32,000 bases of DNA, from contig JAWCFL010000011.1 of the NCBI GenBank assembly GCA_038858525.1, positions 30,545-62,544 of the forward strand, in the 5' to 3' direction. Numbering within the stretch: the stretch's first letter is position 1; each line of letters opens with the position of its first letter. A model generated the notes under the pieces. It was not told the DNA's origin. It saw nothing but the letters and a program-made list of their open reading frames with translations, and searched no databases. A program made the position numbers and the translations under genes. Source of the stretch: Candidatus Jordarchaeales archaeon. Its GTDB lineage: Archaea > Asgardarchaeota > Jordiarchaeia > Jordiarchaeales > Freyrarchaeaceae. Positions 17,566 through 28,394 of this stretch are shown here, in pieces.

Positions 17566-19066
17566 AGTCCAGCTGAGCCACCCAGAAGTCCTTCAAATTA
17601 ACGATGTACGGTTTTCCGGGTGTTGGTGTTAAGCCCATGGCTTTCTGATAATCTGTTTGGTCCTGAAATGTCCCTGAGTTTATCACGGTCACACCGCGAT
17701 AATTTTCTTGCCCATTCACGTGAAGGTGGCCACAATGAAAAATATCTGGGACCTTCTCGATAACTAAGAGGTCCATTGGTTCAGGGGACAATGGCGTTGA
17801 ACCATAGACTGGCGCTAAATGTCTTCCTCTAAGAAGCTCTATCATTGCTTTTTCCGGGTAGTGTGAGTCTATTGATAGAGCTGTCATCACGTCATTCAGC
17901 GGGTCTCCATGAAAGCATAACACCTCAACGCCGTGTATTCTAAAGTATGCTGGGTCTCCAAGCATTTCGACTCCTATTTCGTAAAGTGGTTCACTGTAAT
18001 CTTTAGGTATGGCTGGCTGGGGTAATGCTTGCCTAGTTGCATCGTGCCCGCCCGGTATAGCTATAGTCTTAACGTAGTCTGGTACGTTTTCAAGATGCCT
18101 CGCTGCTATTTCGTATTGCGCGTAGAGTTCCTCGACGACGAGCTCCTTCTCTTGATTCGGGTAGACTCCGACTCCATCCACTATGTCTCCTCCAATTACC
18201 AAGTATTTAACTTGTTTTGCCAAGCTTCTGCTTTTCTCGTCCCCTCTTTTGCCCTGAAGCCATTCTAGGAACCTTGTAAATGGTTTCTCCATGAATTTCT
18301 TGCTGCCGAAATGCGTGTCTGAAATGAAGACCGCCATTATGGGTTCATCAGCCCTCCTAGGTTTGTGATCGAATGGTATGTCGGGCCAAATGATGTTATC
18401 AGCCACAACGAACGCTCCATTACTCCTACCTTCCACGCAGACTACTTGGTCCAGCATAAGGTGTCGCGCCTTGTCTGTTAAGTTGCTCGGGATTAGAACG
18501 CTGACCACACCGTCAAGATCCTCAAGTTCTATGACCATGGAGCCACTTCGAGCCCTCGAAATTTCCCTGACTAATCCTATTAACTTGACTTCCTCGGCTC
18601 TGCCTACTTCACATGTCCTACATATCCCTTTTATGTCCCCCCTTTTCAGAAAGAGGTTGCTGAGACGCATATATCTATCCTTGAAGTAATTAACAAAGTC
18701 GTCTAGGGACCCACTGGTTCCTATCATCTTTGTTGGATCCATCACCACTTCAAAATCTTCATCTACTTCCCTAGCGGTTAGGGCCGGCTTAGGCTTCAAG
18801 CCTGGAGGAATTATACTTTGTGCTTCCTCGCTTTTAGGAGCTTTTACATTAGTTGCTTCTCGGGGCTCCTCTTTTTCAATTAGCTTCCTAATATCTTCCT
18901 CTGTTAGGACAAGTGTTCCCTCTGTGGCCTTAACCTTACTTATGACTAAGGAAGCTAAGCTAGGCTCAAGTGCCAATATGACGTCTAGCGCTCTGGGAGT
19001 AACTTGCAGTCCGGCTTCAAGCAACTCCTTAACTGTTCTCTTTGCAACCTGCGATGTCCCTATCAA
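17552..19066 (-). CDS. dp1: DNA polymerase D small (proofreading exonuclease) subunit DP1
   Basis: OB fold (LIGLVREI...LEDLDG), calcineurin-like motifs SDTHFGS, GDIVDG..VYPNQ, PGGHD, HG, HLAP, HCGHLH, NSGTFQ.QT. Confidence 0.94.
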   Translation of the reverse strand: MIGTSQVAKRTVKELLEAGLQVTPRALDVILALEPSLASLVISKVKATEGTLVLTEEDIRKLIEKEEPREATNVKAPKSEEAQSIIPPGLKPKPALTAREVDEDFEVVMDPTKMIGTSGSLDDFVNYFKDRYMRLSNLFLKRGDIKGICRTCEVGRAEEVKLIGLVREISRARSGSMVIELEDLDGVVSVLIPSNLTDKARHLMLDQVVCVEGRSNGAFVVADNIIWPDIPFDHKPRRADEPIMAVFISDTHFGSKKFMEKPFTRFLEWLQGKRGDEKSRSLAKQVKYLVIGGDIVDGVGVYPNQEKELVVEELYAQYEIAARHLENVPDYVKTIAIPGGHDATRQALPQPAIPKDYSEPLYEIGVEMLGDPAYFRIHGVEVLCFHGDPLNDVMTALSIDSHYPEKAMIELLRGRHLAPVYGSTPLSPEPMDLLVIEKVPDIFHCGHLHVNGQENYRGVTVINSGTFQDQTDYQKAMGLTPTPGKPYIVNLKDFWVAQLDFTGD

Positions 19067-22522: not shown

Positions 22523-23416
22523 TTATTTCTCTGATGCAAACCTCCAAAACTCCTCTACCGCTGCGGACATCTTCCTTCTTTTGTCTCTAACAAGATACAG
22601 CACACGCTCGACGTCCCACCCTTCCACCTCAATGATCTTGACCAGTCCAGCGGCCTCTGCCTTCCTGGCAGCAGTCTCAGACAAAACGGTTATCCCAAGC
22701 CCCACAGACACCGCGTTTATCACCGCTTCCGTGCTGCCAGCTTCCAGTGATATCTTCACCTTGTCAAGAGGAACTCCCAGCTGCATGAAAGCTCTTTCTG
22801 CCTCAATTCTGGTTCCCGATGTTTTTCCCCTAAACACAAATGGGTAACGTAAGCAATCCTCCAATGTAACTTTCTTTTTCATCGCAAGCTCATGGTTAAC
22901 TGGACATATGAAAACAAGTCTTTCTCTTCCGATAGGCGTTACCTCTATCTCCTTAGCACTCGCCTCCATAAGGCTTCCCACAGCTGCTAGGTCAGCCTCT
23001 CCCCTAAGTAGCTTCTTTAAGGCTCCACCAGTATCTAACACCTCGATCTCAAAACTGATCTTCGGATTCTTTTCTTTGAATCGAGCCACTAATTCAGGAA
23101 GAATGTGCTCCCCTGGAATAGTGCTCGCTACAAGTATTATTTTTTCCTCCCCCTCTCCCTCCATCTTTCTTAGCTCCTCCTTAATCTTCTCTACTAGTTC
23201 TAGAATCTCCTTAGCTCTCTTCAGCAGTGCTTCACCTTCCTTGGTTAACCTTACTGTTCTCCTACTCCTATCAAAAAGAGTTACACCAAAAAATTTCTCG
23301 AGCGCAGCTATGTGATTGCTTACTGTGGCTTGGGTCACTCCCAGCTCTCTAGCAGCCCTAAGGAACCCGCCCTTCTCCACAACCTCAACAAACGTTCTAA
23401 AGTACTCTATCCTCAT
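22523..23416 (-). CDS. LysR-family transcriptional regulator
   Basis: FRTFVEVVEKGGFLRAARELGVTQATVSNHIAALE..LFDRS.R.V.LT..G, plus a substrate-binding domain with ASTIPGEHILP. Confidence 0.93.
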   Translation of the reverse strand: MRIEYFRTFVEVVEKGGFLRAARELGVTQATVSNHIAALEKFFGVTLFDRSRRTVRLTKEGEALLKRAKEILELVEKIKEELRKMEGEGEEKIILVASTIPGEHILPELVARFKEKNPKISFEIEVLDTGGALKKLLRGEADLAAVGSLMEASAKEIEVTPIGRERLVFICPVNHELAMKKKVTLEDCLRYPFVFRGKTSGTRIEAERAFMQLGVPLDKVKISLEAGSTEAVINAVSVGLGITVLSETAARKAEAAGLVKIIEVEGWDVERVLYLVRDKRRKMSAAVEEFWRFASEK

Positions 23417-23585
23417 CCGTCACCCCTCTCTTTTTCCAGTATTTCCCAATGTACCATAAAAAATTTTTGATAAATGACACATATAAGATAACGTTTTGAT
23501 CAATAAAACAAATTATCTTTTAGAATTTATAAAGATAAGTCCCCCGACACTCTATTAAAAACAAACTGAGAACGAAACTATAAAA

Positions 23586-23739
23586 TGGTGCGGGGGGTGG
23601 GATTTGTTCCCGCAGCAACGGATTGAACCCACGAACGCCTACGCCCACCTGGACTGCGCGACAGGATTCTGAGTCCTGCCCCTATAGCCGCTTAAACTTT
23701 GACTTAGCCTGCAGGCGCATCTGGCTTGGGTACCCCCGC
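23586..23739 (-). tRNA. tRNA-Leu: tRNA-Leu(CAG) with four non-canonical introns (18/19, 21/22, 45/46, 58/59); CCA genomically encoded
   Basis: Removing 23704-23720, 23684-23698, 23646-23659 and 23604-23622 gives an 89-nt type II cloverleaf: acceptor GCGGGGG/CCCCCGC, A73, CCA, anticodon arm CAGGA-CTCAGAA-TCCTG, T arm GTGGG-TTCAAAT-CCCAC. Anticodon at 23669-23671. Confidence 0.88.
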
Positions 23740-23789
23740 ATCTACCGCCAATCACCTTCATTATGGCTTCCTCAAAAATTTTTTGATTT

Positions 23790-25190
23790 TTAACTCTTAA
23801 TGTTTGCAACAGTTTTCTCCGCGATGAGCTCCGCGACTCGTTCAGCTTTCCGTTTAAGCTTTTCTGTTATGTACCCTTTAATGAATGCTTCTTCGAGAGC
23901 GTTTTTGTCTATTATTTTTACGGTTCCGTTAGGGAATTGTATGACGTCAATCTCCAAGTCTATATATCTGATCCTATTGGGATATAGCTCTATGGGTGTG
24001 TTTATGTTGTAGAATGTTCCTTTAAGTTCTCCTTTTTTAGAGTAGTATTCCGTTTTGAATGTCCATTCCCCAACTTTTACTTGAGTTATGCCGTAGTCTC
24101 CGGCTTCCTTTGGTATGTTTAAGCCGTCGTAGTATCCCCCCGCCGTAAAACTTCTCTTTATGATCATCTCTTGATGGTCTCTCTTTTGAAGGAGCTTTCC
24201 ATGAAGGAGTATTACTTTTCCATTGAGTTTCACGTGTTCAAAGCGTACTTCATCGTTTTTGAAGGCGTTATCAATGACCATTTTTTGGAGTAATTGGCTT
24301 GCTTCTTCGCGTAGTTCTGGATGTCTTGAAATGAGTTCCTCTGCGAAGTCTACTATCTGTGCCACATCACTTCCTAACGCCTTATAGTAATGGTGCCCAT
24401 TTATTGTCGGAGCGACTCTCTCCCTTATGTTGTCTAGCTGTCTTTTGATACTCGCTGGAAACTCAGCGATCACAGTTTCATCACCCTCCCTTACTAGTGT
24501 TGGCTCATCTAAATCCGCTGAGATGTCTAAAATCCTCCTCATTTCCTCTTCTAGCTCCTCTATTTCTTTTGCGATTAGTGAGAGGTCTGCTTTTCCCGCC
24601 GCCGTCCTAAATATTACCCCCATGCCTGCCGGCTTCATCTTATTGCCAAGATGGTAGAGGATGTCACGTACCTCTCTATTTCTGATTTTGTTACTTATGC
24701 CAATATGCCCACCGAAAGTTAAGACCACATATTTCCCTGCGATTGCTATTTCTCCGGTTGCTTGCGGTCTAGGGTCAACTTCATACACTCTCAGGAGCTG
24801 TACTTCCCCTTCTTCTCTAGCTTTTTCATTTACGGGAACTTTTAGACACCCGATATCCGCTATTGCTTTTTCATCGTACTTTTTGATTATGCGTCCTACA
24901 TAAATGGCGTTTAAGTTAGCTTCTGCTTTACGGATAATCACATCTTCCAGCCCTTCTCTAATAACACTGACTACTTTTCCCAACGGTTCCCTTTCACCAG
25001 TTATAATTACTCCCTGCCTGTTCTTCGTGTCATAAACCTCTACATTTGGAGGGTTCATTGTTCTTTCAATTTTTAGTCTTTCAGCCAGTATAGCTGAACT
25101 TTGAGTTATTGAGAAGCCATGTTCTAGGAAAAGTTTGGAAAGTGCTGTAGCGTATATCCCTCTGACTCTAATTTGTATCTCTTCTCCCAA
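23790..25190 (-). CDS. fau-1: FAU-1-family RNA-binding protein/ribonuclease (RNase G-like N-domain + DUF402)
   Basis: IRVRGIYATAL, GVIFRTAA, PTINGHHYYK, G.YDGL, YNINTPIELYP..IRYIDLEIDV. Confidence 0.88.
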   Translation of the reverse strand: MGEEIQIRVRGIYATALSKLFLEHGFSITQSSAILAERLKIERTMNPPNVEVYDTKNRQGVIITGEREPLGKVVSVIREGLEDVIIRKAEANLNAIYVGRIIKKYDEKAIADIGCLKVPVNEKAREEGEVQLLRVYEVDPRPQATGEIAIAGKYVVLTFGGHIGISNKIRNREVRDILYHLGNKMKPAGMGVIFRTAAGKADLSLIAKEIEELEEEMRRILDISADLDEPTLVREGDETVIAEFPASIKRQLDNIRERVAPTINGHHYYKALGSDVAQIVDFAEELISRHPELREEASQLLQKMVIDNAFKNDEVRFEHVKLNGKVILLHGKLLQKRDHQEMIIKRSFTAGGYYDGLNIPKEAGDYGITQVKVGEWTFKTEYYSKKGELKGTFYNINTPIELYPNRIRYIDLEIDVIQFPNGTVKIIDKNALEEAFIKGYITEKLKRKAERVAELIAEKTVANIKS

Positions 25191-25787: not shown

Positions 25788-26138
25788 GTGGTTTTCTTGG
25801 AGTCTGAAGATTTGCAGAAAATGGTTGACATGTTACGACGTGGCGCGACGTTGCTTTCTAAGTCGTGTCCCGTATGTAACTCCCCCCTATTTAAGGTGGA
25901 CGGGAAAATATGGTGTCCAACATGTGAAAAGCAAGTTGTTGTGATAAGAGAGGGAGAGCCGCCTCCCCCAGAGTTAAGTAGCTTGCTACTCGCCAGCTTG
26001 GCAAATGCAATCTATGAGAAGCTCAGAGGAGTAGAAGCACGCATCAGGGAAGCTAGAGACGCTGATGAGCTACAAGAGTCATTAAGACTTGCTGTTGGAC
26101 TACTAGAAGTTTTAGAGCGAATAAAACGCTTAACTTAA
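25788..26138 (+). CDS. UPF0148 / autoantigen-p27-like Zn-ribbon protein
   Basis: LRRGATLLSKSCPVCNSPLF...IWCPTC plus a C-terminal helical segment. Confidence 0.82.
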   Translation: MVFLESEDLQKMVDMLRRGATLLSKSCPVCNSPLFKVDGKIWCPTCEKQVVVIREGEPPPPELSSLLLASLANAIYEKLRGVEARIREARDADELQESLRLAVGLLEVLERIKRLT

Positions 26139-28394
26139 TTCTTCTTCGTTGTACTCGGCTTGGATGATCTTCCTTATTCGTTCCGCCTTCTTTTTTCCTA
26201 TACCTTGAACTTCCATGAGCTCCTTCTCATTAGCAGTGAATACTTTTTCAACACTCTTAAACTTCTGAAGTAATCTTTTAGCTAAAATATGATCTACGCC
26301 TGGTAAGGCCGCTACCAAATGCTCCTGTAGCTCTTTTATTGTGCCTGGCTTTTTGATTCCAATCCGTATTCCCTTTCTCCCCTCTTCTCTTTCTCTTCGA
26401 GCCACAGTCTTAATTACCTCAGCGGTTTCTTTAGCGTTTCTCGTCCAAAAAATTGGCGTTTTAAAGTCTAATGCTATACTTACTAACGCCCCTCTGATCG
26501 CTTCAGCCTTCACACCTCCTCTCTCATACAAGCCTTCCCCTTCTATTATCAAGAGGGGAGCTTCATAGGTCCTTGAGAGGTCGGCGATCTGCTTGAAAAC
26601 ACGCTGGTCTATGATTGACTGCACGAAATCGGTAGCCGTCTTACGCTCTATGCACACTTTCTCCGAAACAACGTAGTCGCCAACATCTAGCTTCGTTAAA
26701 ATAACCTCAACTCCAAGCCTAGCCAGCTCCTGAACAACAGGGCTCCCCCCCTCCCTCACATCCGCATAAACGGTTAACCTGTCTTCCTTTGGAATATATT
26801 CCTCCAAAGTGGCTTGCTGATTAACCTCCACCCTACTTTCTAATCCACCTCCTTTTCTCTCCAGCTCTCTTATGACTCCACGCATATTCTCCTCCCTCCA
26901 CTTCACTGACCAATAGTATTTCTCGTCCATAGTTCCCTTAGCTATAAGGAAGACAACCCTTCCCGGCCTACGCCTACCGGTCCGTCCCTTCCTCTGAACG
27001 AACCTTATAGCGCTGGGAGTAATGTCATAGAAGACTACTAAGTCACACTCGCTGACATCAATTCCCTCTTCAGCCACACTAGTGGCAACCAACACATTAA
27101 ACTCTCCCCTTCTAAACCTTTCAAGAACCTCAGCTTGCTGCCTCTGTGTAAGGCCGGTAGCGTTTCCTCTGTTACCTTGCCCAACTATCCTGTCAGCGTT
27201 AATTCCATCCTCACGGAGCTTCTTCAATATGTCGTCTACTGTGCTTCTAAACTGCGTGAACACTATCACCCGCGACTCTGGTTTGCCAGAGAGTTGTTCT
27301 TTAACGACGTTGACAAGAACACCAAGCTTAGGGTGCGTCATCCCTTGAACGCTCATTGCTGCCACTTCGCTCCTTACAGATGCTACGAGCGGATCTTCAA
27401 GAAGATTCATCAGTCCTCTCCCTCCCTTAATCCGAGCCCTTTCATTCATCCTCTCAAAGTACTTATTGAGGGCACTAATCCCCTGAGTCTCCAAAATTTC
27501 GTGAGCGTGAGCAAGCCTAATGGCGCCTGAGACCGCTGCTAAACACTCGTAATCCTTCTCGCTTTTCTCTTCTTTTCTCAAAAGTAACTCTTGAAGCTCT
27601 AGAAGCTCTCTTCTAGTCCACTTTTTCTTTGCCTGAACATACCCTGCTTCCCTCAAAATATTCATTAGTCCCTTAATGGCCTCTTCAAGCTTTGCTTTTG
27701 CGCGTAACATTTCTGGGGAAAGCGTTACGTTAACCCATTCAACCTTAACTTTTTTAACATAAGGTGCAACGTCAGGGCTTCTTTCAGTTCGCGCCTCAAC
27801 AAACTTTATGCTTAGAGCCCTACAGACATCCAGAACCTTTTCCCTTTGAGAACCGGGTGACGCGGTGAGTCCCAAGATAAGAGGCTTCTTCGCCTGCTTC
27901 AAATACTCCTCTGCTATGAAAACGTACGGGTAATCGCCTACCGCTCTATGTGCTTCATCAAAGACCAGGAGAACCCAGTCTGAAGCATCCACTCGCCTAG
28001 CTATCAAGTCGTTTCTAACAACCTGCGGAGTTGCTATGATGACTTTTGCCATCCGCCATATGTTTTCCCTCTCCTCCGGCAACGTCTCTCCAGTGCAAGT
28101 TCTCACGGCGTCCTCAGGCAATTTTAAGATCTTTTTGAAAGTTTCTGAGTGCTGGACAACTAAAGGCTTCGTGGGAGCTAGAACAACAACTTTCCCCCAA
28201 TCGTATTTAAGTAACCTTTCCGCAGTCAAGATCGCCGCGATAACGGTCTTACCTAAACCCGTAGGGAGCACCACAAGCGTGTTACCCTGCAAAGCCTTAG
28301 AAAATATGTTCCTTTGATACTCTCTAACTTCAACGCTTCCTTCCCTAATAAGAGGGTGCATAAACTGCTCCGAAGAATGCATGCTCTCCTTCAT
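26130..28394 (-). CDS. hef: Hef (FANCM-like SF2 helicase fused to ERCC4/XPF nuclease and HhH)
   Basis: REYQ, PTGLGKT, DEAH, LTASPG, ATSVAEEGIDV, QRKGRTGR, GDY...ERKT..DF, C-terminal GIGKKKA. Confidence 0.95.
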   Translation of the reverse strand: MKESMHSSEQFMHPLIREGSVEVREYQRNIFSKALQGNTLVVLPTGLGKTVIAAILTAERLLKYDWGKVVVLAPTKPLVVQHSETFKKILKLPEDAVRTCTGETLPEERENIWRMAKVIIATPQVVRNDLIARRVDASDWVLLVFDEAHRAVGDYPYVFIAEEYLKQAKKPLILGLTASPGSQREKVLDVCRALSIKFVEARTERSPDVAPYVKKVKVEWVNVTLSPEMLRAKAKLEEAIKGLMNILREAGYVQAKKKWTRRELLELQELLLRKEEKSEKDYECLAAVSGAIRLAHAHEILETQGISALNKYFERMNERARIKGGRGLMNLLEDPLVASVRSEVAAMSVQGMTHPKLGVLVNVVKEQLSGKPESRVIVFTQFRSTVDDILKKLREDGINADRIVGQGNRGNATGLTQRQQAEVLERFRRGEFNVLVATSVAEEGIDVSECDLVVFYDITPSAIRFVQRKGRTGRRRPGRVVFLIAKGTMDEKYYWSVKWREENMRGVIRELERKGGGLESRVEVNQQATLEEYIPKEDRLTVYADVREGGSPVVQELARLGVEVILTKLDVGDYVVSEKVCIERKTATDFVQSIIDQRVFKQIADLSRTYEAPLLIIEGEGLYERGGVKAEAIRGALVSIALDFKTPIFWTRNAKETAEVIKTVARREREEGRKGIRIGIKKPGTIKELQEHLVAALPGVDHILAKRLLQKFKSVEKVFTANEKELMEVQGIGKKKAERIRKIIQAEYNEEELS

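Follow-up and report, generated by a model that had tools for sequence, protein, structure and literature searches.

The window analysed here, a stretch of 32,000 nucleotides from the genome of a Jordarchaeia (Asgard) archaeon of hot springs, carries on its minus strand a tRNA-Leu(CAG) gene of 154 nt that runs from 23739 (G1) to 23586 (the last A of an encoded CCA), so that a window coordinate equals 23740 minus the gene position. The 5' acceptor strand reads GCGGGGG and the 3' end CCCCCGC-A-CCA; between them the sequence is divided into five exons and four introns with bulge-helix-bulge (BHB) motifs (Table 1). The genes around it lie on the same strand: upstream, an RNase E/G-family protein with a DUF402 domain (FAU-1-like, RNA-binding; 23790-25190) ends just short of the promoter-like box of the tRNA gene, with a Hef-like helicase-ERCC4 nuclease farther upstream (26130-28394), and downstream lies a LysR-type regulator (22523-23416).

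Table 1. Parts of the interrupted tRNA-Leu(CAG) gene and its flanking elements, in order of reading (H, central helix; h', inner helix).
Feature	Window coordinates	Strand	Gene positions	Description
Promoter-like A/T element ATCAAAAAATTTTTGAGG	23770..23787	-		about 30 nt upstream of G1; putative promoter
Exon 1	23721..23739	-	1-19	acceptor 5' strand, U8, A9, D-stem 5' strand, D-loop to G18
Intron 1, 17 nt	23704..23720	-	20-36	between G18 and G19; H AGCC/GGCT, h' TGC/GCA, bulges AG/A and AA/G (slash, cut)
Exon 2, micro-exon GTCAA, 5 nt	23699..23703	-	37-41	G19 to A21
Intron 2, 15 nt	23684..23698	-	42-56	at 21/22; H AGTC/GGCT, weak h' GT/GC, bulges AA/A and AT/A
Exon 3, 30 nt	23654..23683	-	57-86	D-stem 3' strand, G26, anticodon arm, variable-arm 5' strand and loop
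Intron 3, 15 nt	23639..23653	-	87-101	3' edge of variable-arm loop; H GCGC/GCGT, h' CC/GG, bulges AG/T and AG/G
Exon 4, 16 nt	23623..23638	-	102-117	variable-arm 3' strand, T-stem 5' strand, T-loop to A58
Intron 4, 19 nt	23604..23622	-	118-136	at 58/59 in T-loop; H GTTC/GAAC, h' CCGT/GCGG, bulges AA/T and AA/A
Exon 5, 18 nt	23586..23603	-	137-154	rest of T-loop, T-stem 3' strand, acceptor 3' strand, A73, CCA
T-run	23582..23585	-		directly 3' of CCA; likely termination signal

Excision in silico of the four segments (66 nt) leaves a product of 88 nt, which ARAGORN folds into a class II tRNA-Leu(CAG) cloverleaf with encoded CCA. This product has G18G19, the T-loop TTCAAAT, the discriminator A73, an anticodon arm CAGGA-CTCAGAA-TCCTG (contributed by exon 3) and a variable region of 14 nt made of a 3-bp stem and a 4-nt loop; the anticodon CAG, the long variable arm and A73 together identify it as a class II tRNA-Leu. 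No intron is found at the canonical position 37/38. The unspliced gene is invisible to general scanners: ARAGORN calls no tRNA anywhere in the window, its intron-tolerant mode (-i) makes none at the locus when run on the whole genome, and Rfam has no tRNA match at the locus, either at the gathering threshold or at E <=10. A preliminary description, based on the letters of the sequence alone, had proposed a tRNA-Leu(CAG) with four non-canonical introns and none at 37/38, had warned that standard scanners might miss or mis-call it, and had suggested running a scanner on the spliced form. All of this stands, the ARAGORN cloverleaf, the orthologues and the BHB geometry agreeing with one another, and so do the lengths and helices that it gave for the introns at 18/19 (17 nt; H AGCC/GGCT, h' TGC/GCA), 21/22 (15 nt; H AGTC/GGCT, HBh'-type) and 58/59 (19 nt; H GTTC/GAAC, h' CCG/CGG). 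Its total of 65 nt removed, with an 89-nt product, had to be corrected to 66 and 88 nt, and its variable-arm intron is redrawn below.

Under the BHB rule, each strand of the motif reads, 5' to 3', four helix nucleotides followed by a 3-nt bulge that is cut after its second base. The central helix has four of four pairs, with 3-nt bulges, at all four introns, the exon-exon junctions falling at gene positions 19/37, 41/57, 86/102 and 117/137. The inner helix h' of introns 1 to 4 measures 3, 2, 2 and 4 bp, and the outer exon helix h 1, 0, 0 and 2 bp; intron 4 is thus a full hBHBh' motif, and introns 1 to 3 are relaxed substrates of the HBh' type. In shuffled versions of the gene, strict geometry (4/4 central pairs and h' of at least 2 bp) occurred in 0.23% of position/length pairs; as it was found at all four sites, and as these sites are set independently by compact relatives, the four motifs are more than chance would provide. 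The BHB helices of introns 2 to 4 are missing from the RNAfold prediction (37 C) for the naked 154-nt precursor, and the all-BHB structure has an energy of -42 kcal/mol, against -63 kcal/mol for the minimum free energy (MFE) fold. We also enumerated all BHB-like removals and let ARAGORN judge them, an approach that proved too permissive, since it left 31 alternative "valid" parses; the boundaries of the introns were therefore settled from orthologues.

A DNA search of 40 related genomes recovered an orthologue from each of the family's four other genomes, three of the same genus (G001, G002 and G003) and one of a sister genus (G004). The five genes, including that of the present genome (G000), are 138-156 nt long, and all splice to 88 nt under the BHB rule. 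The full set of four introns is found in G003, whose gene measures 156 nt. Intron 4 is missing, with exact boundaries, from the genes of G001 (142 nt) and G002 (138 nt), leaving GGGTTCAAATCCCAC; in G004 (139 nt) there is no intron 1, and a T-loop intron of 13 nt occurs at 56/57 rather than 58/59. The exons are well conserved (87 of 88 positions identical to G001, 85 to G003 and 80 to G002), and changes in them are often found in the anticodon stem (6 of 8 in G002, 8 of 18 in G004), where in both genomes the two strands have changed with pairing intact and the CAG anticodon kept. Within the genus, introns 2 to 4 share just 9-14 of their 15-19 nt and vary in length: the intron sequence drifts, and the BHB pairing alone is kept. 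The second strand of the central helix of intron 2, for instance, is GGCT, GGCC, GATC or GACC according to the genome and remains paired with GGTC in every case; h' of intron 3 covaries across the orthologues (CC/GG, CGG/CCG, CCT/AGG, CCA/TGG, CGC/GCG).

Compact relatives, in which the inserts are missing, provide a check that makes no use of the motif. A scan of metagenomes with the 19-nt exon 1 as query returned compact Leu genes, in which this 19-mer is identical, together with a metagenome copy of the G003 gene. One compact Leu(CAG), L053, has the D-arm CCAGGTCGAAGGGG with no insert, so that intron 1 is absent from it as well as from the G004 orthologue. Aligned by MAFFT with the compact genes and with G001 and G002, the window gene displays additional blocks in its D-, variable and T-loops; compact metagenome Leu(CAG) and Leu(TAA) genes, along with the variable arm of the paralogue Leu(TAA), place the insertions exactly at the introns. 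This Leu(TAA), from the same genome, has a compact 14-nt variable region (T-CCC-GTAG-GGG-TTC) that matches the spliced Leu(CAG) (T-CGC-GCAG-GCG-TTC) position for position.

Fewer than four introns might be removed, with one or more inserts, for example in the D-loop or the variable arm, kept as an enlarged loop. Introns 2 and 3 lend themselves to this reading, with only 2 bp of h' and no outer helix, and with BHBs that do not appear in the MFE fold. Yet every insert has the full 4-bp central helix and 3-nt bulges, the inserts vary in length and sequence among orthologues as the spliced length stays constant at 88 nt, and the compact relatives do without them; kept inserts would, moreover, split G18 from G19 and disrupt the variable arm typical of tRNA-Leu. 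We regard the retention of any insert as very unlikely. The comparison confirms, at the level of sequence, that positions 23739 to 23586 hold a real tRNA-Leu(CAG) gene with five exons and four BHB introns.

The one boundary that had to be displaced is that of the variable-arm intron, which the preliminary description had drawn at 45/46 with 14 nt and H CCTG/CAGG, marking the placement as uncertain. An intron is indeed present, but it has 15 nt and the helix GCGC/GCGT, a site kept in the four family orthologues. The two solutions differ in the junctions of the product, GCGCAG/GCGTTC for 15 nt and CCTGTC/GGCGTAG for 14 nt. ARAGORN accepts the 89-nt product of the 14-nt intron as Leu(CAG) too, and natural Leu variable regions can reach 15 nt, as in L053. 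The CCTG/CAGG site, however, has neither h nor h' of 2 bp or more, borrows a strand of the anticodon stem and is without an equivalent in G003, G001, G002 and G004, all four of which possess the GCG(C/T)/GCG(C/T) site with a covarying h'. The shorter intron is accordingly judged extremely unlikely, and we retain the 15-nt intron, whose site is common to the five orthologues and occurs also in the paralogue Leu(GAG). On the minus strand of G000:C1 (140643-140765 in reverse-complement coordinates), the latter gene is interrupted both at 18/19 and in the variable loop, at the sites used in Leu(CAG) and by introns with unrelated interiors; either the introns predate the split of the isoacceptors, or the same sites have been reused.

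The D-loop offers another alternative parse. A single intron of 37 nt (gene positions 20-56) could be formed if the AGCC of intron 1 paired with the second GGCT, that of intron 2; the micro-exon would be skipped, the gene would have three introns, and the mature RNA would not contain CCAGGTCAAAGGGG. In G000 alone this pairing is available, with fitting bulges (within window positions 23704-23720 and 23684-23698), and MAFFT merges the D-loop region into one insertion block. The pairing nevertheless fails in G003, G001 and G002, where the corresponding strand is GGCC, GATC or GACC; the 37-nt intron has no h' helix and its product would lack G19; and the pentanucleotide GTCAA is unchanged in all four genes of the genus, in agreement with GTC(A/G)A in the compact relatives. 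A single D-loop intron is extremely unlikely on this evidence, and two introns around a 5-nt exon remain the reading adopted here.

Two introns so close together raise the question of the order of their removal. Only the five exon bases GTCAA stand between them, and the central helix of intron 2 opens with the final A of intron 1 as long as the latter is in place, and with G18 after its removal (GGTC). In G003, G001 and G002 this changes the helix from three of four pairs before the removal of intron 1 to four of four after it. The G000 helix has 4/4 pairs in both states, an A-T standing in place of G.T, so that the argument for an order depends on the relatives and on the micro-exon. A comparable transition (3/4 to 4/4 after the first splice) is found for the second D-loop helix of a tRNA(CAT) gene in the same genome (G000:C11:10510-10694, plus strand, 186 nt), which has four strict BHB introns of 14, 15, 39 and 44 nt, two of them in the D-loop around the 5-nt exon TGGAT and the others at 37/38 and 59/60. 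As G18 forms part of the central helix of intron 2, intron 1 would probably be cut out and ligated first, and intron 2 next. Going further, one might speculate that the two D-loop introns are spliced as a unit, in two steps whose order around the micro-exon is obligatory, a proposal to which we give slightly less than an even chance. If the four D-loop sites were all cut together, the pentanucleotide would be lost by exon skipping; an ordered unit, if real, would point to a tight coupling of the splicing endonuclease EndA to the ligase RtcB and to a minimum size of exons in protein-only RNA splicing. That close introns may need sequential removal has already been noted in the tRNAscan-SE 2.0 paper (PMC8450103).

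The machinery that such processing would call for is encoded in the genome. Two EndA paralogues (PF01974/PF02778 proteins) of 191 and 198 aa are present, as is a gene for RtcB. The 191-aa protein is closest to the catalytic chain (chain B) of the Aeropyrum pernix heterotetramer (E = 1.6e-48) and has the Tyr/His/Lys triad intact; in alignment, its K46 corresponds to Aeropyrum K44 of the Crenarchaea-specific loop, a lysine required for the broad specificity of EndA (PMC3488258). It is 77-91% identical to proteins of Candidatus Jordarchaeia and Freyarchaeota MAGs. The 198-aa paralogue, with Ala at the site of the catalytic His of M. jannaschii, is probably a structural subunit. This gene set fits an (alpha-beta)2 EndA of broad specificity, with a catalytic alpha and a non-catalytic beta-like subunit. 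The broad-specificity endonuclease that the preliminary description had deduced from the introns finds its likely counterpart in these two paralogues with their specificity lysine.

We consider it highly probable that the locus is the sole Leu(CAG) gene of this Asgard archaeon and that it gives rise to a functional class II tRNA of 88 nt. The primary transcript would comprise a leader and about 154 nt of tRNA precursor; EndA, composed of its catalytic alpha and non-catalytic beta-like subunits, would remove the four short introns, each by cuts at a BHB motif formed half by exon and half by intron; and RtcB would join the five exons into the mature molecule, whose CCA is already encoded. Actual excision, splicing order and use of the promoter are what we infer from sequence. 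The promoter-like box ATCAAAAAATTTTTGAGG recurs at a similar distance from the gene in G000, G003 and G001, the flanks being otherwise dissimilar, and G004 has a near-identical variant with two differences.

That this is the only Leu(CAG) gene appears from three types of search of the genome assembly (a MAG of 2.09 Mb in 63 contigs, 47% GC, 92.7% complete): BLAST with the mature sequence, a scan anchored on the acceptor and T-arm, and a pattern search for the anticodon arm all failed to find a second copy in it, a point that the preliminary description had marked for checking. A pattern match 'CTCAGAA...TGGCGTAG' on contig G000:C28 was rejected as protein-coding-like sequence. The assembly being incomplete, a further copy may still exist. 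The failure of scanners to recognise the gene might be taken as a sign that it is a decaying, unused pseudogene. On the contrary, each of the four other family genomes searched retains an orthologue, as do five of six Freyrarchaeaceae genomes; the four family orthologues have intact stems, an encoded CCA and the CAG anticodon, with the upstream box conserved in three; the gene of a complete Freyarchaeia genome likewise splices to a Leu(CAG) cloverleaf; and the genome has yielded no other Leu(CAG) gene. Decay is a scarcely credible explanation in the light of these data, and an active, sole gene is the interpretation that we follow.

Interruption seems to be the rule among the tRNA genes of this genome. 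Only five loci in the whole 2.09 Mb reach the Rfam tRNA threshold. The anchored scan gave 28 credible tRNA genes, all 85-199 nt long and none uninterrupted, 16 of them with an insert in the T-loop; both observations, like the nearest EndA relatives in Jordarchaeia/Freyarchaeota, agree with membership of this lineage. About 46 tRNA genes are expected, which means that the remaining ones must have introns that break the anchors or lie in unassembled parts. In a survey based on a home-made cloverleaf score, four introns were also counted in tRNA(CAT), Ser(CGA) and Cys(GCA); the score serves for about 20 genes and fails for certain others, Leu(TAG) and Leu(GAG) among them, so these counts are approximate. 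Intron-tolerant scanning can also mislead. Three ARAGORN -i calls were rejected on inspection: a 'Leu(cag)' at G000:C3:53645-53750 is really a Val(CAC) with an intron, a 'Leu(gag)' at G000:C5:44861-44946 is an Arg(CCT) with a D-loop intron, and a 'Tyr(ata)' with a 320-nt intron at window positions 17782-18191 is coding sequence.

Beyond the family, the Leu(CAG) orthologue of Freyrarchaeaceae is 186-188 nt long in the five genomes that have it. In the complete Freyarchaeia genome (G006), whose gene is the only one of that family that we parsed into introns, it lies at G006:C1:1631535-1631720 (L086:96-281), measures 186 nt and gives an 86-nt Leu(CAG) once four introns are taken out, at 21/22, at 30/31, in the variable loop and at 59/60. 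Two of these introns have 3/4 central pairs; the variable-loop intron occupies the same site as intron 3 of the window gene, in relaxed form (H 3/4). The site of intron 2 is the same in all orthologues of the order, and the comparison as a whole indicates that the order has the introns at 21/22 and in the variable loop in common. On the sequences compared, the one at 18/19 is specific to the genus of the window gene. The T-loop intron has been found at 58/59, 56/57 or 59/60 across three genera, and at 58/59 in two of four congeners. The coordinates of G006 match those of the complete Freyarchaeia genome as published (two genes of Supplementary Data 4 of PMC11291895, Pro-CGG at 1625968 and Leu-CAA at 1716276, agree), yet the Leu(CAG) at 1631535-1631720 is absent from the 38 tRNAs in that table and apparently escaped both tRNAscan-SE and R2DT. 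Its omission suggests that the annotation of Leu(CAG) may be incomplete throughout the order.

The gene is a clean and comparatively dated example of the extreme fragmentation of tRNA genes in Asgard archaea. It consists of five exons, one of only 5 nt, and its introns sit twice in the D-loop, once in the variable loop and once in the T-loop, that is, in the elbow and core of the tRNA, where they split the universally conserved G18/G19 pair and, in the T-loop, separate A58 from A59. General scanners (ARAGORN, Rfam) miss it, just as the published Freyarchaeia table omits its orthologue. The variation in introns among close relatives supplies natural controls for studying how introns are gained, which substrates EndA and RtcB accept and in what order these enzymes act.

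The preliminary description had set the gene against the multi-intron tRNAs of Thermoproteales and had implied that four introns would be new. The genome in fact belongs to an Asgard archaeon, of the Jordarchaeia, and the lineage already has such genes: Supplementary Data 4 of PMC11291895 lists four-intron genes, and up to five introns are reported in 10.64898/2026.10.13.758758. According to Valentin-Alvarado et al. 2024 (PMC11291895), introns, for the most part non-canonical in position, interrupt 92-95% of the tRNA genes of Freyarchaeia and Atabeyarchaeia; the four-intron entries there are Arg-TCT and Ile2-CAT of Freyarchaeia (4/4), with Leu-GAG and the Trp gene of Atabeyarchaeia at four according to R2DT. 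Those genes come from the same Asgard class/order, whereas the window gene belongs to another family (Jordarchaeia) and another isoacceptor; the Freyarchaeia table has no Leu(CAG) entry, although a four-intron orthologue sits at the coordinates given above. For Jordiarchaeaceae and Freyrarchaeaceae, the parts of the census by Goswami et al. (bioRxiv 10.64898/2026.10.13.758758) drawn on here give 2.0-2.4 inserts per gene and 'up to five in a single gene'; the same parts report that Asgard D-arm inserts are often missed by tRNAscan-SE, that the inserts lie at BHB motifs and that lineage-specific gains have been repeated. That work, as far as these parts go, is a statistical census whose drawing leaves out the variable-arm inserts of class II tRNAs and which does not discuss micro-exons or splicing order. 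As of 2021, the maximum stated for an archaeal tRNA gene was three introns (tRNAscan-SE 2.0, PMC8450103). The multi-intron tRNAs of Thermoproteales (Sugahara 2007/2008; PMC8450103) likewise have non-canonical BHB introns and a broad-specificity (alpha-beta)2 EndA, and close introns of which one must go before the next BHB can form, as may hold for the window gene; they differ in belonging to another phylum and in their stated maximum of three introns per gene, against four here. As tRNAs with four or five introns have been reported for the lineage, the window gene leaves the known picture unchanged and is a good example of it, not a first.
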